From a virus (Duplodnaviria; Caudoviricetes), in the IMG/VR virus record IMGVR_UViG_3300020414_001395, positions 1,145 to 65,144 of that record: a stretch of 64,000 bases of DNA. The stretch is one strand, 5' to 3'. Shown in pieces: positions 9,032 through 59,841 of this stretch. Numbering within the stretch: the stretch's first letter is position 1; each line of letters opens with the position of its first letter. The notes below the pieces were generated by a model that was not told where the DNA came from, made no database searches, and worked only from the letters and a program-made list of their open reading frames with translations. A program made the translations under genes and the position numbers.

Positions 9032-9518
9032 CTCACGCAGGCGTTACTCAAACGCCACAGGAAGATGCGCCGAAGTTAGGTTCGTCAGAGCCGCCAGAAA
9101 CAAAGGCCTTACTGTCACCAAGTCTAGCCACACGGAGGATAGACACGATCACATAGACTACTGGCTTGCTCTCAGCGGCGACAAGAAGTGGGGGGTTGAT
9201 GTGAAGGGTAACAACTTGCCAGATGAGATCTGGTGCGAGTTTAAGAATGTTCAGGGGAATCCTGGGTGGATGTATGGGGGTGCAACAATTATTGCTTTTG
9301 ATATGCCTGAGGAGGGTGGGTTCGCGATCGTCGATCGAGAGGAGCTCGCCTTTTTTTGTGAGAAGCACGTAAGCAACGAAACGGTCACAGATAAGCGCTA
9401 TGCCTACCTAAAAAAGTACACGAGGAAAGACAGGGAGGATGTCATCACAATCCTTAAGTTACACGATCTCAAGAACTTACTGTCCTATAGAGTTTGGGAG
9501 TACGATAAGAGATATTAG
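9012..9518 (+). CDS. PD-(D/E)XK-fold nuclease-like protein
   Basis: HIDYWL...VDVKG...WCEFKN. Confidence 0.55.
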   Translation: MSSKVSNSRRRYSNATGRCAEVRFVRAARNKGLTVTKSSHTEDRHDHIDYWLALSGDKKWGVDVKGNNLPDEIWCEFKNVQGNPGWMYGGATIIAFDMPEEGGFAIVDREELAFFCEKHVSNETVTDKRYAYLKKYTRKDREDVITILKLHDLKNLLSYRVWEYDKRY

Positions 9519-9535
9519 GGTATCTTTACCGCCCC

Positions 9536-9742
9536 ATGAGAACAAACAGACACAAGAAGATCAAGATGAATATTGACAGATTGCTAGAAGCGAACGCCAA
9601 GTACCAGGCTAACAACGTGTGCGTAACCAACACGCCTGAGCAGCAGAAACAAATTAACGATTACTGCAACGAGAAATTCATTAAGCCCATTGAGGACATC
9701 GACCCTGAATGGTTCGGGATCATCAAGAAGCAGAGCGATTAA
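9536..9742 (+). CDS. hypothetical protein
   Basis: 68-aa ORF, last of plus-strand arm. Confidence 0.5.
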   Translation: MRTNRHKKIKMNIDRLLEANAKYQANNVCVTNTPEQQKQINDYCNEKFIKPIEDIDPEWFGIIKKQSD

Positions 9743-10311
9743 AACCAGTTGCTAGAGCCTAGAATAACCCAGCGAGTTCCAGTCCACATGACTGTCTTCC
9801 ATGATGCACGGCTAGTCACCTTATGAACTTCAGAACTGGTCATCCCCAGCGGGTACTCAGCTTCATGATTGAACAACCCTGGTAAGACATTAGGATTAAA
9901 AGCAGAGTTTAGAGGCGGCTTAACTCCAACGCAAAATATCTCCCCAGGAAGAAGCCTCTTAAAGTCATCTGATCTAACCCCTTTAAATGTATTTGGAAGT
10001 TGAAGCTTGACTGCTATTGATTCATAAAGGTTTATTTGTATACCATTAGCGTCACCACCCCAGTCCAAGGTTGTTTCGGAAGGGGCAGAGATGTCCTCGT
10101 CCACCAAGTATTCTCCCCCTTCATCCACAACAAAAGAAGCAACCGCCACTTCATTGCTCTGATTTACAACCAACGAACCCAGCAATCCTCCTGAGCTTTC
10201 AACTCTGTACTGCTTGCTTGAGCCTGTCTGCAAAAAAGTGGATTCATCCACTTTTTCAAAGTCGAGCTTATTGAATGTAGCCCTGCATATAGGGAATGTG
10301 CGTTTTCTCAT
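9739..10311 (-). CDS. hypothetical beta-rich protein
   Basis: 190 aa; C-terminal MWTGTRWVILGSS resembles ends of 10320 and 38155 products. Confidence 0.65.
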   Translation of the reverse strand: MRKRTFPICRATFNKLDFEKVDESTFLQTGSSKQYRVESSGGLLGSLVVNQSNEVAVASFVVDEGGEYLVDEDISAPSETTLDWGGDANGIQINLYESIAVKLQLPNTFKGVRSDDFKRLLPGEIFCVGVKPPLNSAFNPNVLPGLFNHEAEYPLGMTSSEVHKVTSRASWKTVMWTGTRWVILGSSNWF

Positions 10312-10319
10312 AAAACCTA

Positions 10320-10715
10320 TTAACTAGCACTGGTTAACCCAAGAGGAACCCAGTTTTTTCCATTCCAGAAACAAGTGAATACAGCCTGATTTGTCTGTCC
10401 AGACCCACCGTACTGAAGCTCGACCTCTCTGAAGTCAGCATCATTGTTAAATGGTCCGTACTGATCAGTAGAGTCACCAAGGACTACGATGCAAGAGAAG
10501 TCTCCAGTGTCCTTACCGACCTCGACCATGATGCCAGGAGTTTCTGGCTTGCCAAGCTTAATCTTTACAGCTCCTGCGGGGGCTGGCTGAATAAGAACCC
10601 TGCTTGTTCTCTTGTTCCATTCTTTGTCTGTCCCAGCAGAATCAATGACCTGTACTGCCTCTCTGTCGTCCATAAACAATGGGAAGACGTTTTTCTTATA
10701 GTGGTTAAGAGGCAT
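10320..10715 (-). CDS. paralogue of post-capsid gene 38155 (possible head decoration protein)
   Basis: KNVFPLFMDDR...FWNGKNW versus KNVFPLFLDGDR...FWNGSSW; start ATG 10715. Confidence 0.7.
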   Translation of the reverse strand: MPLNHYKKNVFPLFMDDREAVQVIDSAGTDKEWNKRTSRVLIQPAPAGAVKIKLGKPETPGIMVEVGKDTGDFSCIVVLGDSTDQYGPFNNDADFREVELQYGGSGQTNQAVFTCFWNGKNWVPLGLTSAS

Positions 10716-10731
10716 TTCTAATTCATTTCTA

Positions 10732-10739
10732 CAAATATA
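10732..10739 (-). promoter_or_regulatory. late-type promoter -7 element TATATTTG
   Basis: Exact motif, 5 nt before ATG-AAT-TAG micro-ORF and gene 10715. Confidence 0.6.
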
Positions 10740-10756
10740 CAAAAATCATATCTTCG

Positions 10757-10830
10757 CGTTGTTACACGGGTTAGTTAGCTGTGGAACTTCGCAATCTGTA
10801 GGAGGGGGGCACATAAGCCCTCCTCTTTTT
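10757..10830 (+). ncRNA. candidate small RNA (~70 nt)
   Basis: TATCTTCG -7-like element at 10749-10756, no ATG, ends in a GC hairpin plus T-tract. Confidence 0.3.
10801..10830 (+). terminator. intrinsic terminator
   Basis: GGAGGGGGGC-ACATAA-GCCCTCCTC-TTTTT. Confidence 0.65.
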
Positions 10831-10836
10831 GTTTCG

Positions 10837-10844
10837 TACATTTG
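10837..10844 (+). promoter_or_regulatory. -7 element TACATTTG
   Basis: TAnnTTTG 7 nt before ATG 10852. Confidence 0.55.
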
Positions 10845-10851
10845 CTGGTGA

Positions 10852-12585
10852 ATGAGAATACTTATCACCACCCTCCTTTGGGGGGCGCTTGTCATGGGCT
10901 ATGCCCAGGAGTGCTCCATCATGCACACCAAGAAGCAGCCATACGTCATGGGGCTTGAGAAGATGGTTGATGTGGACCTCGATGAGGTCGACACCGTTAC
11001 TCTACCTGTTGTGTTCCACATTGTACATACTGGGGCTGCACAAGAGAATAACGTATCTGACGAACAAATACTCTCTCAGCTCGACGTGCTGAATGAGGAG
11101 TTTGAGGACAGTAAGATTCAGTTCTGCATGGCTGTGCGCGACCCTGACGGCAACCCTACCAACGGAATTACTCGTTACGATGCAAGCTGGAATGATCAGT
11201 ATGTCTCACAGGGTGTTAGCAATGGCCAAATGGCTGGCGTAGGTTGGGATCAGGAGGCTATGAAGGAGTCTTCTGGCTGCTGGAATCCTGACGAGTACAT
11301 CAACTACTACGTTGTGTCCGAGATCAACGACAACGACGGCGGTAATGGCATCCAAGGGTTTGCTTACCTAGGGCCCACTGGCGATTGCAGGGACGGAGTT
11401 GTAGTGTTGTACAATGCTACAGGAACTGTTGGGGTTCAAAAGCCAGGAAGGACCTTGGGATTTACAGGGGTCCACGAGATGGGCCATCACCTTTCTTTGT
11501 GGCATACCTTCTCCAACACATCTTCATGTGGTTCAGAAACTAACTGCGAAACTCAGGGCGATCAGGTGTGCGACACTCCGCCTACGCTTTCGAATGTCTT
11601 TAGTTGCGACAATCCCGTTTGCTCTGACGCCCTCACAGAGAACTTTATGGATTACAGCCCAGAGACATGTAAAGACGCCTTTACCGTGGGGCAAGCTGAG
11701 CGCATGCACGAGCTGATACAAGGCAGCCGACAGGGGCTTGTAGACAATCTTTCCTGCGTGCCCGTAGTAGACTTTGACGTAACCGCTGGAGCTGCATACT
11801 ACCAGCAAGAGTGGTGCACTCCATACCAAGATATATGGGTGGATGTAATCAATCAGGGAACTCAAACTATTCCGCTTGTAGACGTTCAAATGTTTTGCAA
11901 CGGTCTGCAAGGGACTACAACCCTGTATGACTTGGCCCCTGGTTCAACTCAAGTGTTATTTGAATCAGTGTACGTGGATGGCGCTGAGGAATTTACAGTT
12001 CAAACAACATCTAGTGTTGATCAATTTCCAGAAAACGACGCATCATGGTGGCCTATTTCTGTTATTGATGGAGACCTTTTGGAGATAAAGGTTTCAACAG
12101 ATGTCTGGGCAAATGAAACCAGCTGGTGGCTGTATGACAGCAACTACGAGGTTGTGGCTCAGGATAGCGGATATCCTTTTGGATCAGTCGATTACCTTTA
12201 TGAGGCTTGCATCTATGACGAGTGCTACACGTTCGTAGTTCAGGACACTAACGGTGATGGATTCTGTCAAATTGATTTTGACAATGACGGAAGCTGCGAC
12301 ATAGGCGCCGAGGGCCTCGTGGCGACAGTAGGTCTTGATACTCTAGCGGCCACGGGATTCGGACTTGAGTTCTCTATGTGGGAGCAAACATTTTGCAACT
12401 CACTGCCTCAGTGCAATATGGACTACGACGGTGACGGATACATTGGCTCTCAAGATGTTCTGGAGCTGCTTGTAGACCTTGGGTGCGAAGGCAACTGCTA
12501 TACAGATCCCAACAACGACCAAATTGTAAACATCCAGGACTTGCTGCTTATGCTTGCGAGCACTGGACCATGCCCTGAAGAATGA
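10852..12585 (+). CDS. secreted M43 (pappalysin/ulilysin-like) zinc metalloprotease with C-terminal dockerin/EF-hand-like repeats
   Basis: Signal peptide; LPVVFHIVH; HEMGHHLSLWH zinc motif; NFMDYS Met-turn; DYDGDGYIGSQDVL and DPNNDQIVNIQDLL. Confidence 0.9.
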   Translation: MRILITTLLWGALVMGYAQECSIMHTKKQPYVMGLEKMVDVDLDEVDTVTLPVVFHIVHTGAAQENNVSDEQILSQLDVLNEEFEDSKIQFCMAVRDPDGNPTNGITRYDASWNDQYVSQGVSNGQMAGVGWDQEAMKESSGCWNPDEYINYYVVSEINDNDGGNGIQGFAYLGPTGDCRDGVVVLYNATGTVGVQKPGRTLGFTGVHEMGHHLSLWHTFSNTSSCGSETNCETQGDQVCDTPPTLSNVFSCDNPVCSDALTENFMDYSPETCKDAFTVGQAERMHELIQGSRQGLVDNLSCVPVVDFDVTAGAAYYQQEWCTPYQDIWVDVINQGTQTIPLVDVQMFCNGLQGTTTLYDLAPGSTQVLFESVYVDGAEEFTVQTTSSVDQFPENDASWWPISVIDGDLLEIKVSTDVWANETSWWLYDSNYEVVAQDSGYPFGSVDYLYEACIYDECYTFVVQDTNGDGFCQIDFDNDGSCDIGAEGLVATVGLDTLAATGFGLEFSMWEQTFCNSLPQCNMDYDGDGYIGSQDVLELLVDLGCEGNCYTDPNNDQIVNIQDLLLMLASTGPCPEE

Positions 12586-13490
12586 AAAAACTTTTACTTT
12601 TCTTTTTGCCCATACTAGGTTACGGGCAATGCGATATGGAGATACTGGGATTTGACCCCGTATCTACCGATTTGTTACTTGTCGTAAACGGGGGTCAGTG
12701 CGGAACCGAGGCTGACAGCATTGGTGAGTTTATACTCGCACTTGGATTTAACCCACCCCCTGACGTCTCACCGTGGCCTTGTTTTGGCAACGAAGACTGG
12801 ATGCTTCTGCTCTACCCGCTAGACTTTCCTGGGTTTGACATAGGCGAGGGGTCAGACAACATACTTCAGTCTGGAGACACCTTGCTCTTCAACATAGTCG
12901 AGGACACACCAATGGCAGGCAGTGGAACTCTTGCGTGCTGGGAGCAAGCCTTACAAGAGGGTATATTTTTTGACGACTGTATGGTGCTTACAATCATGCA
13001 GATCAATGACAGCGAGTGCATTGACGGATCGTGCGAAGGCCTCGCTGGTTTTCCCTACCCAGATGAAAACATATCCAACAACTGGCTTGAATTTTCTGTA
13101 GAGTCAGACGCATGCTCCCTTCCTCCTTGGCCGCAGCCGTCAGATCCAGAGCCCGTAGACAGCACTGATACGTCTGGCCCGCCGCCCATTGTAGACGATT
13201 GCCACGATCCCTGCATACACGTATCGAATGCCGTCACCCCCAACAACGATGGAGTGAACGACTACTGGAAGCCAATAACTAAGTCAGAGTGTTGGTTGAG
13301 GTGGGAGTGCACCGTGTACAACCGCTGGGGTCAAGTAGTTTGGCGCACAGATGATCCCAGAGAGGGATGGGATGGGTCTTCTGGATGGAGCTACGCACCA
13401 GATGGCGTTTACGTGTGGAGCATAAAGGGAACCACGTACAGATCAACAAAGGTAATCAGCGTGAGCGGACACCTTACGCTTTTTCGTTAA
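12582..13490 (+). CDS. secreted protein with T9SS type B (gliding motility-associated) C-terminal domain
   Basis: Signal peptide MKKLLLFFLP; NAVTPNNDGVND...VYNRWGQVVW...GWDG...PDGVYVW. Confidence 0.85.
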   Translation: MKKLLLFFLPILGYGQCDMEILGFDPVSTDLLLVVNGGQCGTEADSIGEFILALGFNPPPDVSPWPCFGNEDWMLLLYPLDFPGFDIGEGSDNILQSGDTLLFNIVEDTPMAGSGTLACWEQALQEGIFFDDCMVLTIMQINDSECIDGSCEGLAGFPYPDENISNNWLEFSVESDACSLPPWPQPSDPEPVDSTDTSGPPPIVDDCHDPCIHVSNAVTPNNDGVNDYWKPITKSECWLRWECTVYNRWGQVVWRTDDPREGWDGSSGWSYAPDGVYVWSIKGTTYRSTKVISVSGHLTLFR

Positions 13491-13852
13491 AAGTCGTTGA
13501 GCATGATGTCGTCTATGGCCTCCTGAACTTCGTCAGCAGTGGCCTCCATCGTCATCATGATGTTCGCTTGAAACCTTTCCTGTTCCTCTCCCTCGTTGAA
13601 AATAACAATCGTCGGGACGACAACAATCTTGTGCTCTATCTGAAGATCTGGAGCGGTAGCTATGTCCACGCGGGCAGTCTCGCAGTCGTTCAGGCTCTCT
13701 ATCCACGGCACACTGTTTTGTGAGTTAAACGATGCGTTGAACTCGACAACGCAGATTCCTGATCCGCAGATGTCTTTATCCTCTACAGGCGACACAGCGA
13801 TCGCCGCCAGCAATAATGCAAAAGATACACATAGGGTTGATACGAGCTTCAT
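13487..13852 (-). CDS. exported thioredoxin-fold protein lacking the CxxC active site
   Basis: Signal peptide; VVEFNASFN where WCxxC is expected; cis-Pro loop VVVPTIVIF...EGEE. Confidence 0.7.
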   Translation of the reverse strand: MKLVSTLCVSFALLLAAIAVSPVEDKDICGSGICVVEFNASFNSQNSVPWIESLNDCETARVDIATAPDLQIEHKIVVVPTIVIFNEGEEQERFQANIMMTMEATADEVQEAIDDIMLNDF

Positions 13853-13855
13853 GTG

Positions 13856-14140
13856 TCATTTTAGTTGATCAATTTTCTCCTCAATTCTCTTGATGTCCTC
13901 TTTGATTTCAGTTACGTCTTCCTGGGTTGTCATGATGGTCTGACGAACTAGCTGGTCCTTCATGTCGAACTCCATTCTGGTGATCTCTGGCTCGGCAGGG
14001 AGCGGTAACTCTTTGGCCTCAGCTATGTCAGCCTGCAGCGCGAACCACATCGCTACAACCGTTCCTATCCCCGCTGCTACCATCCCAAGGGTTTTGAGAT
14101 CTAGCGTTACCTTAGTGTCCTCCCCGATTTGCTGTGCCAT
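13856..14140 (-). CDS. single-TM protein with C-terminal coiled coil
   Basis: Start ATG 14140 (TAATG overlap); TM LGMVAAGIGTVVAMWFAL; EIKEDIKRIEEKIDQL. Confidence 0.7.
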   Translation of the reverse strand: MAQQIGEDTKVTLDLKTLGMVAAGIGTVVAMWFALQADIAEAKELPLPAEPEITRMEFDMKDQLVRQTIMTTQEDVTEIKEDIKRIEEKIDQLK

Positions 14141-15186
14141 TACAGTAGTATGTAGTTTATTCCGACAGAGAAGTCGTGCCACTCTCTGTTCCAGTATCTG
14201 TTGTATTTTCCTTCTGTAAATATACCAAGACTTTTGGTAAGCTTGGTTCCAAACACGAGGCCGAAGCCCACATCAACCCACTGGCTGCTATTAACAAAGT
14301 TGTGGTATGAGTACTCGTCTCCCGTGTCCAGGTGATAAGGCATAATATTGCCCCAGGAGTGCAGCCAAAAGTCTCTTTCGTAGTGGTAGAAGTCAAACCC
14401 CAAGACCACTGAGTAAAGCCATTGATTGTCTAGCTCTGATCTCTTTTGAGATACGTAATCATTGAGCACCTGAGGTATAACTACCTGCTCCCATACTGCC
14501 TGATCGTTAGCCACCATGTCACCATCAGGGGAGAAGAACTCGCCAGTATTGACATCAATCGTGTATCCCTGTTCTAGCGCCAGTGCAGTGTAGTGTATCT
14601 GGTTGTTTTCCAGCAGCCATATCTGCAATGGGTCGTACCCGTATGGTTGAGAAATCCTTTGGGCTACACCTGCGTTCAAAGAGAGCTTAGGCCCCAGCTT
14701 CAACCTGAGTCTTTCTGACGCCTCAAAGTATCTAACATCCGCAAATCCATCCTGCAGGTATTCAGCTTTTGCAACCCATCCGTCCGCGACGTATCTGGCA
14801 AAGTAGTCTTGATCAAGAAAGTTCTTGCCCTGCTGTCTGCGCCAGTCTGCTTCAGCTAAGAACTCAAACCCATCGTACTTACCAACCGTTGCTGCGTCAC
14901 CGTAAGTTTTCTCTGTCCCGTCGTAAAACACATTGGCCCTGTTCTCGTACCCAAATCTTGCGATCTTTCTTACCCCAAGAGTAAGGGAGTAGTCGAACGG
15001 AGTTTCTACAACTTCAGTGGTGAGCGGTCCTGTGGCCACAGAAAACACATCTCTGTCCGACACAGAGTTACCACCATTCACCGCAGCATAGAAGGTAGAT
15101 CTCCTTAGCACATCTTTGTAGAAGTCACTCTGACCAAACGCCAGAAGAGGCATGCAGATAAGTACAAGAGCTATAATCCTTTTCAT
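14140..15186 (-). CDS. probable outer-membrane beta-barrel protein
   Basis: Signal peptide; alternating aromatic strands; C-terminal FSVGINYILL. Confidence 0.55.
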   Translation of the reverse strand: MKRIIALVLICMPLLAFGQSDFYKDVLRRSTFYAAVNGGNSVSDRDVFSVATGPLTTEVVETPFDYSLTLGVRKIARFGYENRANVFYDGTEKTYGDAATVGKYDGFEFLAEADWRRQQGKNFLDQDYFARYVADGWVAKAEYLQDGFADVRYFEASERLRLKLGPKLSLNAGVAQRISQPYGYDPLQIWLLENNQIHYTALALEQGYTIDVNTGEFFSPDGDMVANDQAVWEQVVIPQVLNDYVSQKRSELDNQWLYSVVLGFDFYHYERDFWLHSWGNIMPYHLDTGDEYSYHNFVNSSQWVDVGFGLVFGTKLTKSLGIFTEGKYNRYWNREWHDFSVGINYILL

Positions 15187-17243
15187 TGTCTCACGATTGT
15201 TTCCCTCTTGATTCTGCCTTTGTAGTTGGCCATGATTACATACGGACCTGGAGAGGGCAGCTCAACTGTTCTCCCTGTCGTTGTTTCGACCTCCCTGCCC
15301 CTTGCATCAAACACAGTGACGATTGTACCTACAGGCGCCTGAATGTTTACAAAGCTTGATGTGGGATTAGGGTAGAATTGAATGGACGATCTTTCTGCTG
15401 TGCTTACCGACGTTACACCCTCGCCACAGTAGTCGTACATCTCTGCACACACCGCATCCCACGCTGTCTCGCAGCAGTAGGGGTCAACCTCAATCACCCA
15501 GGAGTAGCATTGGTCATTAGCCCAGTACGGTTCGCCTGGACCTGTGATGCAGCCAGCGTCATACACACAGTCATCAGTGGGGGTGTTGGCGTCCTCGTTG
15601 TAGTTGTATGCGTCGATATCCATACAGCCTTCAATAACAGGCAGGCATGAGTCTATATCTACGTTAGCCTCAGGATCGTAGTTCAAGGCCTCGGGGTCTG
15701 TGCATCCAAACACAGCAAGCGTAACGCAGCTGCCATCATCGTAGTCAGCCTCATATCCCTGAGTGTAGTATTCAAGATACCCCGCCTGCGTGCACCCTGC
15801 ATTGTAATAGCAGCTCTCGTCTTCGGTGTTTGCTTCAGGGCTGTAGTTCTGTGCGGTCTCGTCTGTGCATCCGTACATGAATGGCACACAGCTGGTCCCG
15901 CAGTACGGCATAAAGCTGTATACATTCCACTCTGGGTTCTTAAACGGCTGAAGCGACCCCTGCCCGTTATCAAAGAAAGGATTAAGTCCTTCTGCCAAGA
16001 GCGTGTCTCCAAGCTCGTTTGTAATCAGCACAGAGTTGTGAAGCGTCTGGAACTCTGTCTCTTGAGGCGGTTGTTGAGGCCCTCCGATTTCAAAGTAGTA
16101 CACGTCCACCTTTTCGTCGGAGTCAAGGATCAGATCCCATGACTGAGAGAACTCCCCAGGACCCATTGTAAAGATCCACTGAAGGTCTCCCTGCTTGATG
16201 CCTACGTGTGAGTTGCCCCACCCGTCCGCAGCTGCATCACCAAGTCTTATGGTGGTTGCGCAGGGGCTGTTCAAATCCGAGATGGTGGCAGTTGAGTCGT
16301 AGTTAAATGACTCTGGGTCCATGCACCCCCATGTGTGTAATATGAGGCAGTCCCCTGCCTCTGTAGCTTCTGGGTTGTAGTCAACGTAATCGTCGTCCAT
16401 GCAGCCCACTACAGGCTCTTCGATTTCACATGGCTCTACAAACACAGCTCCAGAGTAGTGAACGTTGCCGTCATTGTCTGAGTAGGCTAGATCCTCCAAC
16501 TCCCAGACAACCTCCTCATCGCATGCAGTGATGACCACGCCTCCGTCTTGACCACCGCTGGCCGATCCATTAAGGCCGTCTCCGTATGTGTCTGTCAGAA
16601 TCAGCTCAAAGCCAAGTGCAACGCAGAAGTCGTAAGTGTAAGTGGACAGCTGATCCCCAAAATTAAAGCCCCCTGGAAGAACCTGCTCGTAGAACTGACC
16701 GACAGCCAAGTCTACCAATGTAAATCCAGTTTCGTTAGGCCAGTTGTCTAGTGTCAACTCCATGGAGACAAAGGCTTGCCCCTCTGGGCATTCGCTTACG
16801 TTGCAGGTTCCGTCATCGGTGGTTGCCCATGGGTTGTAGTTGTTAGACGACTCGTCCGTGCATCCAGGTATGGGAAACTGACATGCCTCAAGAATAAATG
16901 GAACTGTGATCTGCTGTGTGTCAAAGTCGAACACAGAGATGTCCAAGCCACAGTCATTGTTTAGCTTGAACCATCCTTCCCCAAACCCGCAACAAATACC
17001 GTCCCCAAACGCATCGTTAACGACTAGGTTGTATTCGCCAGACGGCAGGGGGATGGTGTGCTCAGTGTATGTTGAGTCAGCGTATGGACCGCCAGATGCT
17101 AAAGACTCGTCAGAACCAACTTCATATATGCTCCAAGTGCTTTCTTCGCCGTATGCGTCGCTCTGAAACTCAAGCCTTACCCAGCTAGGCTGTGCTGCAG
17201 CCAATAGGGGCAAGAAAAACAACAGGGAAATTACCCGCTGCAT
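15183..17243 (-). CDS. secreted Cys-rich repeat protein with T9SS type A C-terminal sorting domain
   Basis: Signal peptide from ATG 17243; 7 GC(T/M)D..A.NY...A...D..C-type repeats; FYPNPTSSFVNI...VFDARGREV...GPYVI. Confidence 0.85.
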   Translation of the reverse strand: MQRVISLLFFLPLLAAAQPSWVRLEFQSDAYGEESTWSIYEVGSDESLASGGPYADSTYTEHTIPLPSGEYNLVVNDAFGDGICCGFGEGWFKLNNDCGLDISVFDFDTQQITVPFILEACQFPIPGCTDESSNNYNPWATTDDGTCNVSECPEGQAFVSMELTLDNWPNETGFTLVDLAVGQFYEQVLPGGFNFGDQLSTYTYDFCVALGFELILTDTYGDGLNGSASGGQDGGVVITACDEEVVWELEDLAYSDNDGNVHYSGAVFVEPCEIEEPVVGCMDDDYVDYNPEATEAGDCLILHTWGCMDPESFNYDSTATISDLNSPCATTIRLGDAAADGWGNSHVGIKQGDLQWIFTMGPGEFSQSWDLILDSDEKVDVYYFEIGGPQQPPQETEFQTLHNSVLITNELGDTLLAEGLNPFFDNGQGSLQPFKNPEWNVYSFMPYCGTSCVPFMYGCTDETAQNYSPEANTEDESCYYNAGCTQAGYLEYYTQGYEADYDDGSCVTLAVFGCTDPEALNYDPEANVDIDSCLPVIEGCMDIDAYNYNEDANTPTDDCVYDAGCITGPGEPYWANDQCYSWVIEVDPYCCETAWDAVCAEMYDYCGEGVTSVSTAERSSIQFYPNPTSSFVNIQAPVGTIVTVFDARGREVETTTGRTVELPSPGPYVIMANYKGRIKRETIVRQ

Positions 17244-17362
17244 GACTCGCAATCCTCTGGGTTGTCGATGTTGCAGGTGATCTCACCATCTTCAATCTTC
17301 TTCTCTTGCTTCTTGAGCTTGTCTTGATCAAGAAAGCTGATGTCGTCGAAATCTTCCTCCAT
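17231..17362 (-). CDS. 43-aa peptide ending in CNIDNPEDCESCSG (not in ORF track)
   Basis: MEEDFDDISFLDQDKLKKQEKKIEDGEITCNIDNPEDCESCSG; TAATG coupling to the holin. Confidence 0.7.
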   Translation of the reverse strand: MEEDFDDISFLDQDKLKKQEKKIEDGEITCNIDNPEDCESCSG

Positions 17363-17805
17363 TATTTTTTGGCTTTTTCAATGGTTCTTCCTGCGAAGTA
17401 TGCACCGAAAGAGGTGAGCATTAAGATCTCCAGCAAAGATACGTAACTATCTTTTACGTTAAATGGCCAACCATCCATGCTGTCTGCGACCATTGTAGCC
17501 ATAAACATGACCATTAGGCAGATCAATGTAACAGGTCTAATCAGCTTTGCAAGCTTGACATCACTACCCATGTCCGCCTTCCATCTTTCGCTTACATTGT
17601 TCTGAAACTGAACCTCTGCGTCGAGCATGGCCTTAGCTTCTGCAGGGTCAACATCAGGCTCCTTGTCTAACAGATTTTTTACCACGCCAAGGGCGCCTTG
17701 GTCTGGGAGCAGGTCCCCCACCGTATCCAGTACAGAGGGGGCCTTTTCTTTCAACCACTTGCCAAGGCCAGTGTCTTTGATTTTAGTCTTTTCTGGTTTG
17801 CTCAT
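17362..17805 (-). CDS. holin (3TM gene-transfer-release type)
   Basis: RWKADMGSD...IRPVTLI; two TM segments; YFAGRTIEKAKK basic tail. Confidence 0.7.
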   Translation of the reverse strand: MSKPEKTKIKDTGLGKWLKEKAPSVLDTVGDLLPDQGALGVVKNLLDKEPDVDPAEAKAMLDAEVQFQNNVSERWKADMGSDVKLAKLIRPVTLICLMVMFMATMVADSMDGWPFNVKDSYVSLLEILMLTSFGAYFAGRTIEKAKK

Positions 17806-20800
17806 ATCTCTTGTTGAATTTCATAACGATGCTTCTCTCTTTGTCTGCGAGCTCCTGCATCCTCTTCATTCTCTCTGTGTAGTCCTGTATCTCTAGAGCG
17901 TTTCTTCTCTGCTTTCTTAGGTTGCTCAGCTGCTTGTCGTAAATCTTCAAGACTTCAGACAAAGCGTAAACGCCCTTGTATCTGTCGGGGTCGTCCTTGC
18001 GTCTAGCTCTTTTCATTTCAGCCTTAAGCTCCATGATCTTTTGACGACGGGCCCTGTAATCCTCCACATCCATGTACTTGGATGGCTCTCCGTAAAGGAT
18101 TCTCAAGAAAGGAAGGTCGTTCGCCTCTATTTTTACTTCGTTGTCTGAAGCCTTTGCAGCAAGGCCTCTGACAGCCTCTCCCGTTCTGGTAACAAACTTG
18201 CCCGCGCCACCGATGAAGTACTCAAACAAGTACCACATCTTGTCGGGATTGAAGTCAAGGTCTCCCTTCACCTCCACAGATCCTCCAGTAGCTTCGTTCA
18301 TCCATCTGAAGAATTGCTGGACTGACTCGGGAGATCTAAACGACATTGATGACTCTGGCTGCTGCAACCCGTAAGGCAGATTCTCCTTGAATACAGGACC
18401 CCCAAAGTATGTCTCGTTGGTCATTATGTCTACGATAGGCTTAAACACCGTAGGAACCGCAGACTTACCAGCCTTCGTAAACAGGTCGCTAGATTGACCA
18501 AAGCTGATTGGAGAGAATGAGTTAATGAACGAAGACGTCAGTTGCATCATCGCTGTGTCAATCTCTTTGTGTCCAGCCCCAACTTCAACGGCACTGCTAC
18601 CCAGATTTGCAAACAAGCTGAATCCGTATGGGAGAGGGACCTTGTAGTAGTCTTTCCCGTTGGGGCGCATGATGATGAGGTTTCTTTCCTTGATGTAGTC
18701 TGGTATCTTGTTGTAGTACAACTCTCCATCTTCGTCCTCTCCAGACATCGCAAGAGACAGCATGGTCAGCATACCATTAAACACAGTAAGTGCCGCAGCC
18801 ATCTTCTGGGCGTTGTTCATGCGATCCTTAAACGCTCTCTTCGTGCCGTCTGGGTATGTTGGCTCCTTCAGCGTGAGAAGAGATCTTCCAAGCCTAGCTG
18901 TACCCTGCACAGATGCGTTGAAGAAAAGGTATACTGAGTTCAACAGCTGTCCGTACTCTCCAGACTTGTTGAAGTTTACAGTGATGTTCTTGGCAAGCTG
19001 AGCCGCCTTTTCTCTGCTAACCCCCTTCTCTCTGGCCGCGATGTAGGCCGACAGACGAATGCTGTTCTCGAATGCGTCGTTGACCCCCTCGATGGTTCTC
19101 GCAAACGCCTCTGCATTACCCAAAAGGGTCTGCATTCTTGTCTTGTCTGAAGTCTCAGACTCAAGCGCTGCGGCAATATCCGCGAGTGGCTTTGCATAGC
19201 TCCATCCAGTCTTGCCGCCGTCGTCCCTGAAGTCATTGTAGTACCTTTCAATCTCTGGGTTCTCTTTCAAGAACTTAGACAAGGCCTCAGGGGTCTCGGC
19301 CTTAACCAAAGCCTTCAGCGTCGCGGGAACCTTACGTATCATGTCTGCGACAATTGCGTCGCCTTCGATGATACCCCCTGGGATATCCGCTTCAGCCGCT
19401 GCATTAAAGATGGCTGATTGTATATCTCTTGAGAAGTTAGATATCATAAACTCTGGGTTCAGAGTTGTAAATGATCTTCTGAGCCAGTTTGATGGGGCTC
19501 TCAACATTCTTACAAAGACACTAGTCGCGGGGAGGTTCATATTCCTCAGGGTCTCAGCATAGCTGGCGTCCTTGAATCTTATGAACTTCTGCTCACCATC
19601 AACCCTCACGGATACTGAGTGTGGATCTTGAGAGGTCGCCTTAGATCCATCAACGATTCTCCATACCTTATCGTTAGGATTCTCCTTTACCAGCTCGTAC
19701 AGGGATTGCAAAGCTTCGTTTGTTCTTGCTTTGATGTGTACACTTGCGTTTTGCGCAATCACCTGAGCCAATATGTTTTCAGCCTGAGACTTACGACCTT
19801 CCGCTCTCTTTGTTGTTGGGCCAAACACAGACAGTCCAGCCCCACCCGTTGGGTAGGAAGAGGTAACCGAAGACTCCTCGTCGACAGCGATGCCAGACAA
19901 AGGCACGTAGCTATCAAACTGAGATTCAAAAGCATCAATGGCCTCCTGAGACTCAAGCCCAAACTCAACCATGGTGTCTCTTGTGTCTTGCTGTATATCC
20001 CTAACCATCTTGACTATTGCGTCAAGGGTAGATCTTTTGTCTGAAGGAATAGAGTCAATGATTGACCTAGCCTCCTCGTTTGTCATACCCGACCCGCTTT
20101 CTTCTTTTCCTTCGGTTCTCTCTTCTATGAGTGCGTTTCTTTCTGGGGCGTGAAGAGCATACAGGTAATCAGAAACCTCTTGAACAGAAACTCCACCTTC
20201 CTTCATGGCTTCCACAAGATCTTTCTGCTTATCATCAAGCTTCCTGAGATCCTCCGCAGCCTTTCCGTACATAAGCTCCTCGGCCATTTTGAAGTCCTGA
20301 GATTGATCTCTTACTCCACGGGCAGCCTCTACGTCTTCCTGCAGCTTAAATATGTCAACGTACTTGTCCTGAAGCCTTTTGATCCACTTATTTCTCCAAG
20401 TCTGGAAAGCAGTGAGATCAGAGACCTGCCAAGTGCCTTGGTCCGTTCTCACCGACTTCAGCCCTCTTACGTCTCTAATTGAGGCCTTTCCATTGACGTC
20501 CTGCACCTCTGCATTGACCTCATACTGGCTATATCTGTTAAGAGCCTCCGCCTTTGAGTATGGGTCTGATGCTCCCTCAAACTCCTTCTTTCTTTTTGTG
20601 TCTTTAGCTTTTCCTGAAATATCACCCCCGATAAAGTCTGGGTCAATCTTATCAAGAGTATACTGTTCCTTAAAAACCTCAAGAGATGTTGAATCTCCAT
20701 CGACTATTATAGCTCCAGTAAATCCATATCCAGAAAGATTCTTGACCCTCATGTTCTTGAGAACTACCTGGCCATAATTCTTAAGTATGTCTTGGTCGAT

Positions 20801-23800
20801 CTCGTATGTGAATCTTTTTCCGCCAAACAGCGTTGCGGCTTTTTGGGCTTTCAACGCTGGGTCGTTAAAGTATTCAGCAATTTGCTGATCTATCGTTCCT
20901 GACGTAGGGACGTCCCTACCCATCTCAAAGGCTTCGTGGGAGAAGTACTCCCCCATTACATCCTTGCCAAGGAAAGGCTTTCTAGCTTCGAACTGATCAG
21001 CCATCTTTGTGTGGTAGTTGATGAGTACATCAACTATTTCTTCAAACTGCTTTTGCGTCGTTACAGGAAGAACAAAGTCTGACGAAGAGAACAGTCTTGC
21101 GGTTTCTTCAGAGAGTCCTTCGAAGCCGTCGTTTTCTGCCATCCTAATCATCGTCCTCACCTTAGCTTTCGCGGCTGAAGTAAACTTATCATATATGGTG
21201 GGTCCAGAAATACCCACGTTCTTGTCTCTAGACCTTGCAATAAGGCCTCTCATCACAGCAACAAATACGTCTGGATTACCCTTTGTGGCTTTGTATGTGA
21301 GCGGAGCAAAGAGGCTTCCAAATTTGCCAGACATAGCAATGGCACTATCGGCCTTGTTCATTCTCGACCTCGCTCTCTTCTCCTCGTCCTTGAATCTTAT
21401 GTTGTTTGCCTTGTCAAAGATGGCCTGAGCTTGAGCCCTGTATCTCTCCATTCTTTTTCTTGCCATGGCGAGGTTTACGTGTGTCGAAACCACGGACTCA
21501 CCCTCTTTGAGCTCTTCAAGGTCCGCATCGTCCAAGTCCATTACAGCCCTGGGCCCAGAGGTTATACCTTTTTCTGTGTCAGGCATTGTTTTGTCGTACC
21601 CGCTAGTGGGAGAGAACAAACCCCTATAGTCCTCTAGGTTACCCTCCTGAAAATCTTTCATTTGATTTTCGGGCATCACGTAATCTGGATCCCCAAGGTC
21701 CTCCTTTTTGTACCTAATGGCGAACAGGCCAACGGTGTCTCCAGCCTCGGCGTCATCAAAAGGAACCATACCAGTGGCATTGACGAGGTCGCTGTCCTGA
21801 ACTCTGTTCAATGGAGCGTAAGCCCTAGACCTTCCACTATCATCAATTCGCTTCTCAATGTCCTCCTTGGTCAGCCCCATCTCAAGCGCTGCCTCAATAT
21901 TCTTCTTTGCTATTACTGCAATCCTGTAGTCCTGATCAGCTGTTCTTTCCATGCGCTCAGGCCCTGGGGGTTCGAACTGAAGGGCGTTGACATACCCGTT
22001 CCATGGAAGCTCTCTAAACAGCTTCCTAGACTCGTCTCTAATGTCTCTCGCTTGACGTCTTACCTCCTTTCTTTGATCTGAACGGTCAAATGCCTCTTTG
22101 CGCTTTTGCTGATTGTAGGTCAGGGGGACCTCCATGTAGACTGGATTTCCATCTCGGTCTACCTTTGGTCTCGGAGGGTTCACCTTGTACTTCTTCCCAT
22201 CCTTTATGAAATACATGTTTGCTATCCTGTCAGCCCTTTGGTTGCCAGTCTGCTTGTTGTACCAGTTTCTGAAGTGGAAGTAGTCGTTAACCTTGACTGA
22301 CTTTTGAGCTGAATACGTTGTGTATCTGCTGCTCGTCAATGGAGACTGACCAGGACCAAGGGACGGGTAGTTCGTGTAGAATATCTCTGTGTCCTTCAGG
22401 TAGTCAAAGTTTTTCTTCTGTCTAACGGACAGACGCCCCTGGAACATGTCTATACTTTCAGCGCCCTGCTCAAGCACATCTTCCTTAGGCGTTACTACAC
22501 CCTCAAAGCTGCCAAGCATGGCGTCCGCAGCTTTTGCGATACGAGCGTCAAACTCCTCTTGAGTTTCTGTTGGTCTCTTAGGTGCGACGTCGGGCTGAGC
22601 CTCTTGCTGAGGCTCCTCTTGAACCTCCTCTTGAGTTTCTTCTGCGGTGGCCGTTGCTGGCTCTGGCTCAACTGTTGTCTCCTGACCTTGAGCAGCCCTT
22701 CTGAATTTGTCCGCAAGATCAAACAGGCCTTCGTCCCCTTTGATGACGTTGCCTTTTACTCCAATGCCCTTAAACACTCGGTTAAACGCGGCTCTAATCT
22801 TGTCCTTTACAGAAAGGAACTGATCTGGGTTATTTGCGTATCTGACAAGAACAGATATGATTGACTCTTCCTGAAGGGTAGCATCGGGTCTGCCCTCATA
22901 GAACTTCTTTGTTTCTTCAAGTACGGCCTTAACTGCCTTGGCTCCTTTTGTTTTGCCTTTTGCAATCTTCTCCATCTCCCCATACAGCCGCTGTCTAGCC
23001 TCTGCGTCCTTTCCGATCACTCCCTCAAGCACTGCGTGACCAAACTCCTCAAAGGCGTCAATAGCCTCAGTGTTGTTGTTGAGGTGGATCGTATTTGTGT
23101 CCTTGTCGTAGTAACCGTATATAGCCCCCTTCTTATCCTGAAGGACTTTCATTTGAGCCTTCATCTCAGGGCTAATCGTGCCGAAAGATTCGTCAGTCTT
23201 ATGAAACTTAACCTTTGTCCCAAGCTTGTTTAGAACCCCGCCAAAGGCCTTGGTCATTTTGTTGATGGACGATGCAACAGCTATTGGTATCTGTCCAGCC
23301 CCGTCACCAACAACTTCAGTATCCTTCAAGTCCACCATCTGACCCTCGGCAACGTTGACCTCAAATACGTCCTCTGTCTCCTGCTCTACAGGCTTCTCGG
23401 TAACCTCTTCTTCGACTTGTGTCTCTGCCTCAGTCTCAGCTTCAGCTTCTGGCTCAGCCACAGTCCCAGGCTCCGTGACCTCGTCAAACAAAGACAGCTG
23501 CACAGCCTGCTGCTGCTGACCCTCTGGGGCTGCATCTGTTGCTTCAGGCACATTGTCGTGGGACTTTTTCTCTGACTCCTCTACCTTTCTAGTCTTAGCT
23601 GGCGACTTTTGCTCGCCTGCATCCTCAACCGTAGGCGGTGTCTCAACCTCTCTAGAGGTCTCCTCTTCTGCCTGTCTTTTTTCGACGGCCTGCTCCAGCT
23701 CTGCCTTTTTGTTGAGATTCTCTTCAAGTCTTTCTTCGATGGCCTGCCTCTCTTCTTGAGTGACTGGGTCTCCCGTCCAATGCTTTCCGCTCTTTAGTAT

Positions 23801-56970: not shown

Positions 56971-57234
56971 TTATTGCTGTGAAGGGGTGGCTTGCTCATC
57001 GCTGTACCAGTCGCCACTGATGTCGTTAACGATAGAAAGTATTTGAGTGTGAGTATATGAAGTTATCCCGTAGAGAGATCTGGGTTTGTTTCCATTCCAT
57101 GAGACAATAGCCATGTCGTCTCCATTGACGGATCTTCTGCAGCTAGATATAGAGCTCTGAAGAACTTCGTCAATCATATCTTCAGTGACTGACGAGTAGT
57201 CTACAATAGCGTATTTCCTGTTGTCTGGTACCAT
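56971..57234 (-). CDS. hypothetical virion-associated protein
   Basis: YAIVDYSSV...CRRSVNG...YTHTQIL. Confidence 0.6.
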   Translation of the reverse strand: MVPDNRKYAIVDYSSVTEDMIDEVLQSSISSCRRSVNGDDMAIVSWNGNKPRSLYGITSYTHTQILSIVNDISGDWYSDEQATPSQQ

Positions 57235-58091
57235 TAGTGAGATGATCTATCTGGAGAGTTGTACAATGTCATGTCTCTGTCATTTCCAGAAGAGTCTGGT
57301 TCAAGAGAGGTTGTGGAATCTGGATCATCACCCATCTTGTACCAAGCATAGAGATCATCCTTGCTTGTATAATCAGAGAAGTTTCGAGTGAAGTCAAATC
57401 CACTCAGCCCCTGGTTGTAGATGTAAGATATCTCGCTTGCGGAAAGCTCTGAGCTCCACATCGCTACTTCATTTAGGTCAAACTGATCGTAAATAGTGTT
57501 GTATCTCGCCATAGTCATCACCATATTGGAGTTAGCTGGACTAGAGCTATTAGATGCGTTGACAGAATTAGTGAGCTTAGTGACCGACACTGCTGCACCG
57601 TCCACATACAAAAGCGTCCTCCAGCTAGAACTAAAAGGCTTAATAGTTACAGCTATGTGGTGCCAAGTATCGTCGGTAAGATCATCAGCACTAACACTCT
57701 TAAAGTCGGCCCAAGTGGTAAAAGTGGAGGTGAAGATGTTTAGGTCTGACCTTACGATGACAATCCTGTTGGTTCCTGAGTCGTTTCTAGTCGCGATGTA
57801 AAAGCTACTGACGTCAGGCAGAGAAAAAGCATAACCCCCAATCATATAGCTGTACTGGTTGTTGGTTGCTGGGTAGAAGTCAGAGGATCTAACCCAGAAC
57901 GAAATGGTGCCGCCCGTCGTACCGATAGCATCCATGAACGTTTCGCTATTGCTACCAAGAAGCTCACCGTATTCGTTTACACCGTCAAACGCGAGGAACT
58001 TTGACCCACTATACTTTACGCGCTTGGGTCTTTTGTCGTTGGTTTGTGCTGCTGTAACTCCTAGTCCTAACATATCAGAGTCCTTTACCAA
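57234..58091 (-). CDS. LamG/concanavalin A-like lectin-fold virion protein
   Basis: FDGVNEY, TISFWV, WHHIAVT, LYVDG, LNEVAMWSSELSASEI, WYKMGD. Confidence 0.8.
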   Translation of the reverse strand: MVKDSDMLGLGVTAAQTNDKRPKRVKYSGSKFLAFDGVNEYGELLGSNSETFMDAIGTTGGTISFWVRSSDFYPATNNQYSYMIGGYAFSLPDVSSFYIATRNDSGTNRIVIVRSDLNIFTSTFTTWADFKSVSADDLTDDTWHHIAVTIKPFSSSWRTLLYVDGAAVSVTKLTNSVNASNSSSPANSNMVMTMARYNTIYDQFDLNEVAMWSSELSASEISYIYNQGLSGFDFTRNFSDYTSKDDLYAWYKMGDDPDSTTSLEPDSSGNDRDMTLYNSPDRSSH

Positions 58092-58575
58092 ATATCACTT
58101 CGTAGTACGTCTTCCCCTCATCATCGCGACAAGCTTTGAGACACCGACCACGATTAACCCCATCATAAACGAAAGAGACGTGAACCCAATCAGGATTATC
58201 GTTATCACCAAACTCCCAAATGAGTTGATCAAACGTAACATTGTTGAGTATCCAGCGGAAGATTTCACCGTTTGTACAGCGTCCGAATACGTCTGCGTCC
58301 AAATCAAGTGCTCTTCCTTCCACATGCTGACTGCGCTTCGAACCGCCGATAGCAGCGTTGAGCTCAGGCGAACGATAGCCGCTCGACACGCATATAGGGC
58401 ACCCGAAAGCGTCCCTAAGAGGTTGAAATACATGCTCTGCAGTCTTTCGTAAATTTTCTGTAACCCAATCATCAGGTGTATTATCTATTCCAAGTCTTTT
58501 AGCCGTGTTGCTTTTTGTCACCTCGGCGAGCGACAGATTTTTTGACAGCTTCATTATTGAGTCTTCGTTTTTCAT
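58075..58575 (-). CDS. peptidase M15A endolysin
   Basis: SSGYRSPELNAAIGG...SQHVEGRALD...DQLIWE...WVHVS. Confidence 0.88.
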   Translation of the reverse strand: MKNEDSIMKLSKNLSLAEVTKSNTAKRLGIDNTPDDWVTENLRKTAEHVFQPLRDAFGCPICVSSGYRSPELNAAIGGSKRSQHVEGRALDLDADVFGRCTNGEIFRWILNNVTFDQLIWEFGDNDNPDWVHVSFVYDGVNRGRCLKACRDDEGKTYYEVIFGKGL

Positions 58576-58636: not shown

Positions 58637-59065
58637 TTACGCCGCCACAAATAGTTCAACGTTACATGAGGCAGAGTTGGCCACTGCTTTAATAGAGTCG
58701 ATGTTTGCCAGTGATGCCGTAGCAGCGCCAGAGTCATCATCGGTGTCCATGACCGTCTCGAACAACACAAAGGAGTCACCTGCTGAAAGCTTGACGAAGT
58801 ACTCGTCGTCTCCAGCGGTCATACGCAGTGTAATGAAGTTTGTGAGGTCCAAGTTCGTGATACGAACGTAGTCTACGCTGGAGTCAGCGAACTGACCTGC
58901 AGCCTCCGCCGTATCGAAAAGTACAAGAGATTGTTCTGAAGTCCCCACCTTTACGATACGTTGATCCAACTGGGTGATGCCAGTCATATCAATCGTGTTC
59001 GTAGACCCTCTTTCAGATCCGTTGAGAGTAATGCTCTCCTGTATAGTTACTGTAAGTGTTGCCAT
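58637..59065 (-). CDS. small beta-rich virion protein (paralogue family)
   Basis: MATLTVTIQESITLNG...DYVRITNLD...VELFVA. Confidence 0.65.
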   Translation of the reverse strand: MATLTVTIQESITLNGSERGSTNTIDMTGITQLDQRIVKVGTSEQSLVLFDTAEAAGQFADSSVDYVRITNLDLTNFITLRMTAGDDEYFVKLSAGDSFVLFETVMDTDDDSGAATASLANIDSIKAVANSASCNVELFVAA

Positions 59066-59841
59066 TATCTAGGGAGTCTAGCTCCGAGCATCGCTCTAAG
59101 CATTTTGAAGTCTTCAGCTGTGATCTTACCGTCGTTGTTCTTATCAAGCTTCTTCTGCCCTCCGACAAGACCACCCTTCTTAAGCAGCTTCATCTTGCCA
59201 CCATACTTAAATGGAAGGTTTCCGTACTGAGCGAGGTTGGCAGCCAGGTTAGGCCCTGTTGCCTCTGCATCGTAATCAAAGTTATCGTCAGGTGCAGCGT
59301 CAAACTCATCAATGGCTCCGAGCTCCATGTCATCAATAGACAGGTTTGGAGCACCGTAAGCATCAGATCCTGGGGTCTCCCCCATCCCCTTAAAGAAACC
59401 TGCTTCACCAAGAGCCTGTTGAACCTTTCTGGCTTTCTGAGCCTTCCCCAACAAGCCTTTCAACCCTCCCTTTCCTGCAGCCTTTAATGCGCCACCCTTA
59501 AGGGCTCCACCTTTAATGGCTGAGAGGGCAGCAGGCCCTCCAAATGCCAAGCCAGCAGCCAAAGCACCAGCAGCTATGCCTTTCTTTGCTCTGTCTTTCT
59601 GTACGTTTCTGAGGTAATCGAGTCTGTCAGCGCTCTGAGGTCCGTACTCATTGAGTCTACCTTCTCTTTCGAGCTTCTTGAGATATCTCTTCTCTTGTCT
59701 GAGTGCGCTACCCTTGGTATTGAAAAGGCCTCTATTGGCGAAAGCCATGTTGATGCCCCTGCCAGCGCCCTCCATATCTGAGTACTTGGCTTGAGAGTTT
59801 CCGAAGAAGCCCCCGCGCTTATAATTCTTGGTTACTTGCAT
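59065..59841 (-). CDS. G/A/K-rich protein with C-terminal EF-hand
   Basis: LDKNNDGKITAEDF; first gene of late arm. Confidence 0.65.
   Translation of the reverse strand: MQVTKNYKRGGFFGNSQAKYSDMEGAGRGINMAFANRGLFNTKGSALRQEKRYLKKLEREGRLNEYGPQSADRLDYLRNVQKDRAKKGIAAGALAAGLAFGGPAALSAIKGGALKGGALKAAGKGGLKGLLGKAQKARKVQQALGEAGFFKGMGETPGSDAYGAPNLSIDDMELGAIDEFDAAPDDNFDYDAEATGPNLAANLAQYGNLPFKYGGKMKLLKKGGLVGGQKKLDKNNDGKITAEDFKMLRAMLGARLPR

Follow-up and report, generated by a model that had tools for sequence, protein, structure and literature searches.

How do proteins that carry the sorting domains of a bacterial secretion system come to lie behind the holin gene of a lytic phage, and what could they do there? 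The question is raised by a stretch of 64,000 nucleotides (the window; bases 1145-65144 of a 65,144-bp IMG/VR virus record) whose positions 10852-17362 encode six proteins, here called P1 to P6: an M43 protease (P1), two proteins with type B (P2) and type A (P6) C-terminal domains (CTDs) of the secretion system known as type IX (T9SS), a predicted outer-membrane beta-barrel (P5), a transmembrane/coiled-coil protein (P4) and a thioredoxin-fold protein (P3). A first-pass annotation, made from the letters of the window, had described them as one cargo and envelope module through which the phage would display its own proteins on the infected cell. All six open reading frames (ORFs) are in place, and the M43 protease, both CTDs, the barrel, the thioredoxin fold and the transmembrane/coiled-coil protein are supported in silico; the single module gives way to separately assorting cassettes in a hypervariable island. 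On balance, the locus is probably an accessory island that holds three independent kinds of cassette, P4-P3, P6-P5 and P1-P2. The results presented here concern the structure of the genes, their family matches and predicted folds, their synteny and the continuity of the assembly, and from these we infer a T9SS in the host, export, display, late expression and every function.

Export signals and sorting domains

The signal peptides of P1, P2, P5 and P6 end in a small residue followed by Gln, as in ...ILGYG/QCDM for P2 and ...LLAAA/QPSW for P6, so that four of the five signal peptides of the locus obey the Q-rule described for signal peptidase I substrates of Bacteroidota (PMC5837995, PMC10653852). 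Scored with a simple form of the rule, the relatives behave in the same way: 33 of 37 cargo proteins, 17 of 19 P5 proteins and 16 of 16 M43 proteases comply, against none in nine cytoplasmic families taken from the same loci as controls. The Q-rule signal peptides are sequence-level evidence for export and for a Bacteroidota host. Proteins of this kind in phages have been noted earlier for P. gingivalis prophages (PMC10367356).

The clearest sorting domain is that of P2. Its very C-terminus (residues 212-302 of 302) matches CHU_C (PF13585; 60.5 bits for a cut-off of 27; 1.7e-16) as well as TIGR04131 (45.1-48.2 bits for a cut-off of 35), and nearly all of its 160 relatives carry PF13585. The P2 chain consists of the signal peptide, a passenger (residues ~17-180), a proline-rich linker and the CTD, which is also the well-modelled part of the AlphaFold2 (AF2) prediction (predicted local distance difference test, pLDDT, of 81-93), the passenger being of low confidence. 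A Foldseek search with the passenger model returns only generic immunoglobulin (Ig) and fibronectin type III (FnIII) chains. Among GenBank phages (INPHARED), the CTD alone is matched, in two megaphage records and one fecal contig. The two uncultured megaphages (LR745206.1 and LR756502.1; 634-642 kb) match at 31-33% identity (E values of 2e-9 and 3e-6), and type B sorting domains may thus occur in very large phages too.

The type A domain of P6 is a borderline case. In a six-frame search it scores 23.9 bits against TIGR04183, just above the cut-off of 23, covers model positions 2-71 of 72 and ends 2 residues short of the stop codon. P6 orthologues in 15 of 50 related records reach 25-42 bits (32.8 bits for the family member P0317), and most of the 1049 relatives of P6 carry PF18962; the label PF26780, found on some of them, is absent from the Pfam copy scanned. 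Upstream of the CTD, the passenger contains six GC[TM]D...NY...C repeats and 30 Cys residues. ESM Atlas clusters of P6 are 100% viral, with Por_Secre_tail in 61-96% of their members, and no protein match is found among the GenBank phages of INPHARED. Of the 50 related records, many of them fragments and with some CTD matches lying outside the island, 15 have a type A and 14 a type B domain above cut-off (union 23 records), compared with 0 of 14 control genomes. In silico, both CTD classes are genuine at the family level, and the hidden Markov model (HMM) check that the first-pass annotation had called for gives a type B domain clearly over its cut-offs and a type A domain that is marginal in P6 and clear in its orthologues.

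P1 displays a different organization. It matches Pfam Peptidase_M43 (PF05572; 63 bits for a cut-off of 23; 4e-17) and keeps an intact HExxHxxxxxH zinc site (HEMGHHLSLWH, residues 208-218). Behind its Q-rule signal peptide come the catalytic domain (residues ~47-295) and, in the middle, domains rich in beta structure; the C-terminal end is an EF-hand/dockerin-like module with a weak EF-hand match at residues 523-541. Mirolysin of Tannerella forsythia is a T9SS-secreted protease. The catalytic domain of P1 (residues 47-295) aligns full-length, at E values of ~1e-23, with the structures of ulilysin (PDB 3lum, 4.3e-24) and mirolysin (PDB 6r7w, 3e-23), zinc site included; unlike these enzymes, P1 is phage-encoded, has extra C-terminal domains with a dockerin/EF-hand-like end and carries no CTD. 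Indeed, the sole TIGR04183 match in the whole record is the CTD of P6. With a CTD lacking in the copy of this phage, nothing indicates that P1 gets beyond the periplasm, where it would probably act unless it rides on a partner; it has either lost a CTD or never had one. Its best match in Genome Taxonomy Database (GTDB) genomes, a Chitinophagales metagenome-assembled genome, shares only 35% identity, so neither a donor nor a host can be named from P1.

Several further features of the M43 proteins may be recorded here. The C-terminus of P1 (12400-12585, plus strand) holds two EF-hand/dockerin-like segments, DYDGDGYIGSQDVLELL and DPNNDQIVNIQDLLLML, for which no cohesin partner was identified; M43 orthologues match Dockerin_1 and the GC-type dockerin model NF041540 just under cut-off, and a second protein of the phage (258 amino acids (aa); 59065-59841, minus strand) has weak Dockerin_1/EF-hand matches near its C-terminus. 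Longer M43 orthologues (632-638 aa) have ~50 additional C-terminal residues ending in GVYILKW..KKVFVQ, a tail that resembles the last strands of a type A CTD, and P1 of the window stops just before it. These tails are not claimed as CTDs: a six-frame scan of their records gives none at E<=0.001, and NCBIfam, including TIGR04183, none at E<=0.1.

Table 1. Location of the genes and domains discussed, in the window and (last four rows) in related loci
Feature	Position	Strand	Basis and remarks
P1, putative exported M43B (pappalysin/ulilysin-like) zinc metalloprotease	10852-12585	+	Pfam, PDB, motif
P2, putative exported type B T9SS-CTD protein	12582-13490	+	CHU_C and TIGR04131; start overlaps P1 stop (ATGA)
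Type B CTD of P2	13218-13487	+	
P3, putative exported thioredoxin-fold protein without CxxC	13487-13852	-	3-nt gap after P4; always follows P4
P4, predicted bitopic membrane protein, 94 aa	13856-14140	-	Short N-terminus, one transmembrane helix, ~57-aa acidic coiled-coil tail
P5, predicted 12-strand outer-membrane beta-barrel	14140-15186	-	Q-rule signal peptide; AF2; coupled to P6 (ATGA)
P6, putative exported Cys-rich repeat protein, 689 aa, type A T9SS CTD	15183-17252	-	Probable start M4, 17243
Type A CTD of P6	15189-15374	-	
43-aa acidic ORF ending CNIDNPEDCESCSG	17231-17362	-	TAATG on holin stop; stop 11 nt inside P6
Holin	17362-17805	-	phrog_3427, 8.7e-23; last core gene of late operon, after 2618-aa virion protein
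2618-aa virion protein	17783-25639	-	LPD38 domain (large polyvalent protein-associated), residues 2309-2511
Probable endolysin, Peptidase_M15_3	58075-58575	-	PF08291, 2.4e-19; ~40 kb from holin
Longer M43 orthologue	L021:6098-8005		
Longer M43 orthologue	L040:9957-11855		
Longer M43 orthologue	L057:11589-13505		
Longer M43 orthologue	L070:11959-13857		

A hypervariable island behind the holin

The record is that of a complete phage (100% according to CheckV), with no terminal repeats on this metagenomic contig. It encodes a large terminase (TerL; phrog_6681, 6e-205), a portal protein (1e-197), a primase/helicase (2.5e-207), a virion structural protein, an exonuclease and a resolvase-like nuclease. 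No tyrosine integrase HMM matches anywhere in the record, in keeping with the first-pass remark that no integrase was visible. TerL is 41-48% identical to its counterparts in the Flavobacterium 'elemo' podoviruses and in Cellulophaga, Tenacibaculum and Maribacter phages. The phage is probably a marine, Flavobacteriia-type, lytic, podovirus-like virus, for which the INPHARED collection contains no DNA match to the region.

Holin relatives number 237 in IMG/VR, and the best 80 loci among them were compared, with gene sets defined by clustering of 646 island ORFs. In 48 relatives, an island of 2.1-9.7 kb separates the holin gene, at the end of the late operon, from the primase/helicase gene of the replication module, and its content points to a general hot spot for accessory genes. 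The minus-strand genes form nested sets: P4-P3 is present in 27 loci, 23 of these also hold P5, and 20 hold P6 as well. M43 genes occur in 18 loci; some are coupled to the gene of a type B protein and lie on the strand opposite to the holin, and the solitary ones share the strand of the holin and sit right after the holin or P3 gene; type B proteins with larger passengers (410-591 aa) are also found without M43. P6-P5 and the M43-type B pair read as add-ons. Other genes seen in sister-phage islands include those of class I (large and small subunits) or B12-dependent class II ribonucleotide reductases, and a metallophosphoesterase-like gene (for example L008:11270-12937 and L028:11757-13649).

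In the window, as first described, two convergent units face each other, P2 on the plus strand and P3 on the minus strand overlapping by 4 nt. The minus unit had also been described as translationally coupled to the holin. The coupling holds, but only through an intervening gene: the stop codon of the holin gene and the start codon of P6 are 109 nt apart, and this gap is filled by a 43-aa ORF, so that the chain runs from the holin through the 43-aa ORF to P6, P5, P4 and P3, each junction being an overlap of the ATGA or TAATG kind or, in one case, a gap of 3 nt. Upstream, the stop codon of the 2618-aa virion protein gene overlaps the holin start. The 43-aa ORF is 58-100% identical in more than 25 related contigs, including relatives without cargo, and is a backbone gene. 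It mostly lies just after the holin gene; in loci L050, L056, L063, L067 and L074 it is found ~430 nt upstream of the holin match.

Scans for sigma-70 promoters and terminators give counts at or under the expectation from shuffled sequence, and no regulatory claim is therefore made. A strong GC-rich hairpin of 11 pairs followed by a T run (10800-10827, plus strand) lies 25 nt upstream of the P1 start, between u140 on the minus strand and the divergently oriented P1 on the plus strand.

Probable lysis-associated proteins, the predicted barrel and competing readings

Among the proteins encoded behind the holin, P4 resembles an i-spanin in layout and position. Its start is set at M15 of the longest ORF (position 14140; the ORF is extendable to 14182) by 22 orthologues and by a TAATG overlap with the P5 stop. 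In sequence searches it matches only phrog_1009, weakly (E value of 0.002) and with function unassigned. Three other small transmembrane/coiled-coil families, tmccB (69 aa), tmccC (102 aa) and tmccD (99 aa), occupy the same post-holin slot in other relatives and co-occur with P4 in no locus. tmccD matches Rz-like spanin PHROGs (phrog_89, 5.5e-5) and shares phrog_1009 with P4, tmccB matches spanin PHROGs weakly, and in Vibrio phage 1.238.A a 'coil containing protein' follows the holin homologue. Because of this mutual exclusivity with other post-holin transmembrane/coiled-coil genes, P4-P3 is probably one among a number of lysis accessory sets that can replace each other, with a spanin-like or a holin-regulating role, and is not read as belonging to a T9SS cargo module.

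P3 as a single sequence stays below cut-off against thioredoxin, and its family profile matches thioredoxin structures (E value of 1.9e-7). The cis-Pro (V79-P80) is invariant, and the position of the WCGPC motif reads FNSQN or WNKGN, that is, N-x-x-N. Since the CxxC motif is replaced in this way, P3 is predicted to be a thioredoxin fold that does not serve as a redox enzyme. P3 orthologues have signal peptidase I-type signal peptides, some of them obeying the Q-rule, and no ORF with an o-spanin lipobox exists in any minus-strand frame between 13300 and 17400; on both grounds P4-P3 is not a canonical spanin pair. Within P3, a 35-nt segment (13542-13576) is a place where contigs end or diverge on both sides in three of four sequencing runs, which suggests that more than one P3 allele is present within a sample.

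Distant homologues of the holin, in a Vibrio phage and a Manatee Spring phage (NC_055735, MW202879), adjoin an endolysin or M15 peptidase gene. In the window, the probable endolysin gene is located at the other end of the minus-strand block, where it adjoins the gene of a Laminin_G_3 (concanavalin-like) protein (57234-58091, minus strand).

Searches with P5 against Pfam, NCBIfam and PHROG return no family. Modelled by AF2 from 31 diverse relatives, the protein comes out as a closed barrel (pLDDT 73; predicted template modelling score 0.70) with 13 long strands, or 14 with a short one at residues 56-58, and its best matches are 12-strand barrels. All top structural matches (Foldseek, VIA-align) are outer-membrane barrels, led by the EstA autotransporter domain (Z 13.3), KdgM (13.0) and NanC (12.7); OpcA, Tsx, OMPLA and LpxR come next. 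The chain ends in G-[IL]-N-Y-x-hydrophobic-hydrophobic. Signal peptide, closed barrel and hydrophobic C-terminal strand all fit an outer-membrane beta-barrel, which P5 is predicted to be. Its 3629 relatives lack any Pfam family, its ESM Atlas clusters are 100% viral and INPHARED holds no protein match among GenBank phages. With virus-only clusters for both, P5 and P6 are long-held viral genes and not recent captures from a host. The most conserved stretch of the P5 family, residues 71-108 (~14863-14976, minus strand; G71, R73, K74, F78, Y80, G90, E92 and E108), coincides with the least confidently modelled loop (pLDDT 26-32), and may be a partner-binding or plug segment.

Taking into account that its four genes follow the holin immediately in the late operon, each coupled to the next, the whole minus unit P6-P5-P4-P3 could be conceived as one non-canonical device for outer-membrane lysis, a lipoprotein-free equivalent of spanins in which P4 would occupy the inner membrane, P3 the periplasm and P5 the outer membrane, with T9SS-delivered P6 weakening or marking the surface late. 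The nesting of the sets, in which P5 never occurs without P4-P3 nor P6 without P5, speaks for such a device, as do the absence of a canonical o-spanin lipobox ORF, the Rz-like matches of the positional analogues of P4 and the presence of the outer-membrane enzymes OMPLA and LpxR (Z ~11) among the structural neighbours of P5. However, P4-P3 on its own is enough in eight or more relatives (in at least 8 of its 27 loci it lies directly after the holin), and about half of the family lacks both P5 and P6, so that lysis in the lineage can do without these two; moreover, OMPLA and LpxR rank no higher than plain porins and autotransporter barrels. A single device of four proteins is thus unlikely. Its more specific form, in which P4-P3-P5 would replace Rz/Rz1 in this phage family as a lipoprotein-free envelope-spanning device, with P3 as a dead-thioredoxin periplasmic adaptor and a late T9SS-exported P6 that, for example, breaks or masks the outer layer and so frees the progeny, is quite unlikely.

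A second reading assigns to P5 the role of a phage-encoded shuttle or anchor in the outer membrane, PorV-like or PorP/SprF-like, which would free P6 or P2, in secretion or surface retention, from the shuttles of the host. PorV is a 14-strand FadL-like barrel. Like P5, the PorP/SprF and PorV shuttles are outer-membrane barrels of similar size that adjoin CTD cargo; type B substrates usually rely on cognate PorP/SprF shuttles, often encoded adjacent to them (PMC12618676, PMC9143113), and orphan type B substrates served by a distant shuttle exist (PMC12618676). P5 has the size of a PorP/SprF barrel, its gene is translationally coupled to that of the type A cargo P6, and P2 is only ~650 bp away. 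Nevertheless, P5 shows no sequence or profile similarity to these shuttles and is predicted to have 12 strands. HMMs of PorP_SprF (PF11751) and PorV (PF19572) find nothing in the record, and an hhalign comparison of the P5 family profile with 12 PorP/SprF proteins from a Chitinophagales genome aligns the signal peptide only (probability 13%). Across relatives, P5 does not co-vary with the CTD genes: it is present without any CTD protein in L022 and L039, and type B cargo occurs without it in ~9 loci. As these searches are negative and co-variation is lacking, the shuttle role is unsupported. Type A CTDs are, besides, all handled by the PorV of the host (PMC12618676). A shuttle function of P5 is distinctly unlikely.

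The domains at the C-termini of P2 and P6 might also be Ig-like beta-sandwiches reused by the phage, for instance in virion or debris-binding proteins, and no T9SS substrates at all. CTDs are indeed beta-sandwich folds, Ig-like domains are common on phage particles, the type A score in the window is marginal and the P2 model matches generic FnIII/Ig chains. Yet the domains sit at the extreme C-terminus of proteins whose Q-rule Sec signal peptides are cleavable, a feature for which a virion protein has no use, the type B domain is well above curated cut-offs here and in 14 relatives, and P6 orthologues reach 42 bits, which makes such reuse very improbable.

That bacterial DNA was joined into a phage contig by misassembly or host contamination, as the likeness of the genes to a bacterial secretome and a metagenomic contig without terminal repeats might suggest, has a negligible probability, given that many independent IMG/VR contigs show these genes within identical phage surroundings, that GC content is uniform (0.48-0.49; 0.47-0.50 over 10852-17362 and its flanks), that the P5 and P6 families are virus-only and that P1 has no close GTDB match. 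The exact P2 sequence is present on 33 contigs. A 9-kb segment (9500-18500) is nearly complete in 11 runs from eight samples and three studies, and contigs of four runs from different samples have even depth and bridge P1 to P2, P2-P3 through P6, and P6 to the holin and the virion protein. A chimeric host insertion was one of the outcomes that the first-pass annotation had named as fatal to its proposal; the synteny survey and the depth profiles show the same flanks and even depth.

Proposed route to the envelope and relation to known systems

In the favoured reading, that of an accessory island with three kinds of cassette, P6, P5, P4 and P3 would be made late, together with the holin. P3, P5 and P6 would leave the cytoplasm via Sec, with signal peptidase I cutting at Gln; P5 would then insert into the outer membrane as a 12-strand barrel, and P6 would cross that membrane via the host T9SS through its type A CTD and, if it behaves like known type A cargo, either stay on the surface or be set free. 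P4, as an inner-membrane coiled coil, and P3, as an exported redox-dead fold, would act in the envelope at lysis. P2 would take the type B route, for which it would need a host shuttle of the PorP/SprF type, and P1 would probably act in the periplasm.

A number of observations weigh against this scheme. Whole-protein scans leave the type A CTD of P6 below threshold (19.0 bits for a cut-off of 27 and 19.9 bits for a cut-off of 23). Sequence searches with the P2 passenger reach no relative of solved structure and no fold could be identified for it, and the same applies to the P6 passenger, which finds no sequence match in the PDB. The type B cargo P2 lacks a PorP/SprF shuttle of phage origin, a search of the entire record with PF11751 at E<=10 giving nothing. 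As to the lysis cassette, the PHROG matches of P4 at E values of ~0.002 could reflect transmembrane/coiled-coil composition, and the lipobox ORF expected of an o-spanin is the one missing from the minus-strand frames. Finally, a host endowed with a T9SS is itself deduced from the hosts of related phages and from the Q-rule.

If the proteins are exported as predicted, abundant lytic marine phages would rebuild the cell surface of Flavobacteria-type hosts with virus-only proteins, using the T9SS of the host. The present data do not separate exclusion, receptor clipping and adhesion, which the first-pass annotation had put forward as roles. Were co-transcription with the holin late in infection to be confirmed, functions during lysis or afterwards would gain weight against an early exclusion of superinfecting phages. 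The locus also provides candidates for the outer-membrane lysis step of Bacteroidota phages, namely P4-P3, its alternatives tmccB, tmccC and tmccD, and P5.

Compared with the Rz/Rz1 spanins (Kongari et al. 2018, PMC6139136), P4 shares an N-terminal transmembrane helix, a predicted periplasmic coiled coil and a holin-adjacent gene. It differs from them in having no outer-membrane lipoprotein partner; its invariable partner is P3, sometimes joined by the barrel P5. Furthermore, P4 itself scores for no spanin family, the matches to Rz-like PHROGs being those of its positional analogues. A phage counterpart of P5 is the cyanophage family PF24653 (Phage_OMP), which also consists of phage-encoded outer-membrane barrels and is a near neighbour of P5 in the feature space of the Atlas (0.93); this likeness is one of language-model features only, with no alignment, and the host phylum differs.

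The idea that phages encode T9SS cargo is already published. Three variable genes of the 'Cryophage' carry type A domains, a 'unique occurrence' according to its authors (Bellas et al. 2020, PMC7468147), and ORFs with T9SS sorting domains lie near the crAss-BACON genes in contigs of gut phages (de Jonge et al. 2019, PMC6949934). Both cases resemble the present one in having phage genes for T9SS CTDs in variable or flexible regions and in the proposed use of the host T9SS, put forward in silico only. Passengers of the Cryophage proteins, whose CTDs are without exception of type A, are recognizable as glycoside hydrolases and a PA14 protein, whereas the island described here combines both CTD types with virus-only passengers, a post-holin place and linkage to an outer-membrane barrel and an i-spanin-like pair, in a family that, unlike either precedent, comes from the sea and counts its relatives in thousands. 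What the present analysis appears to add is a very large marine family in which the two CTD classes occur together with passengers confined to viruses, a constant position after the holin and linkage to a virus-only barrel and a non-canonical spanin-like pair. For an idea stated only in passing (PMC7468147), this family offers a concrete and conserved test case, with both CTDs, a defined island and hundreds of variants.

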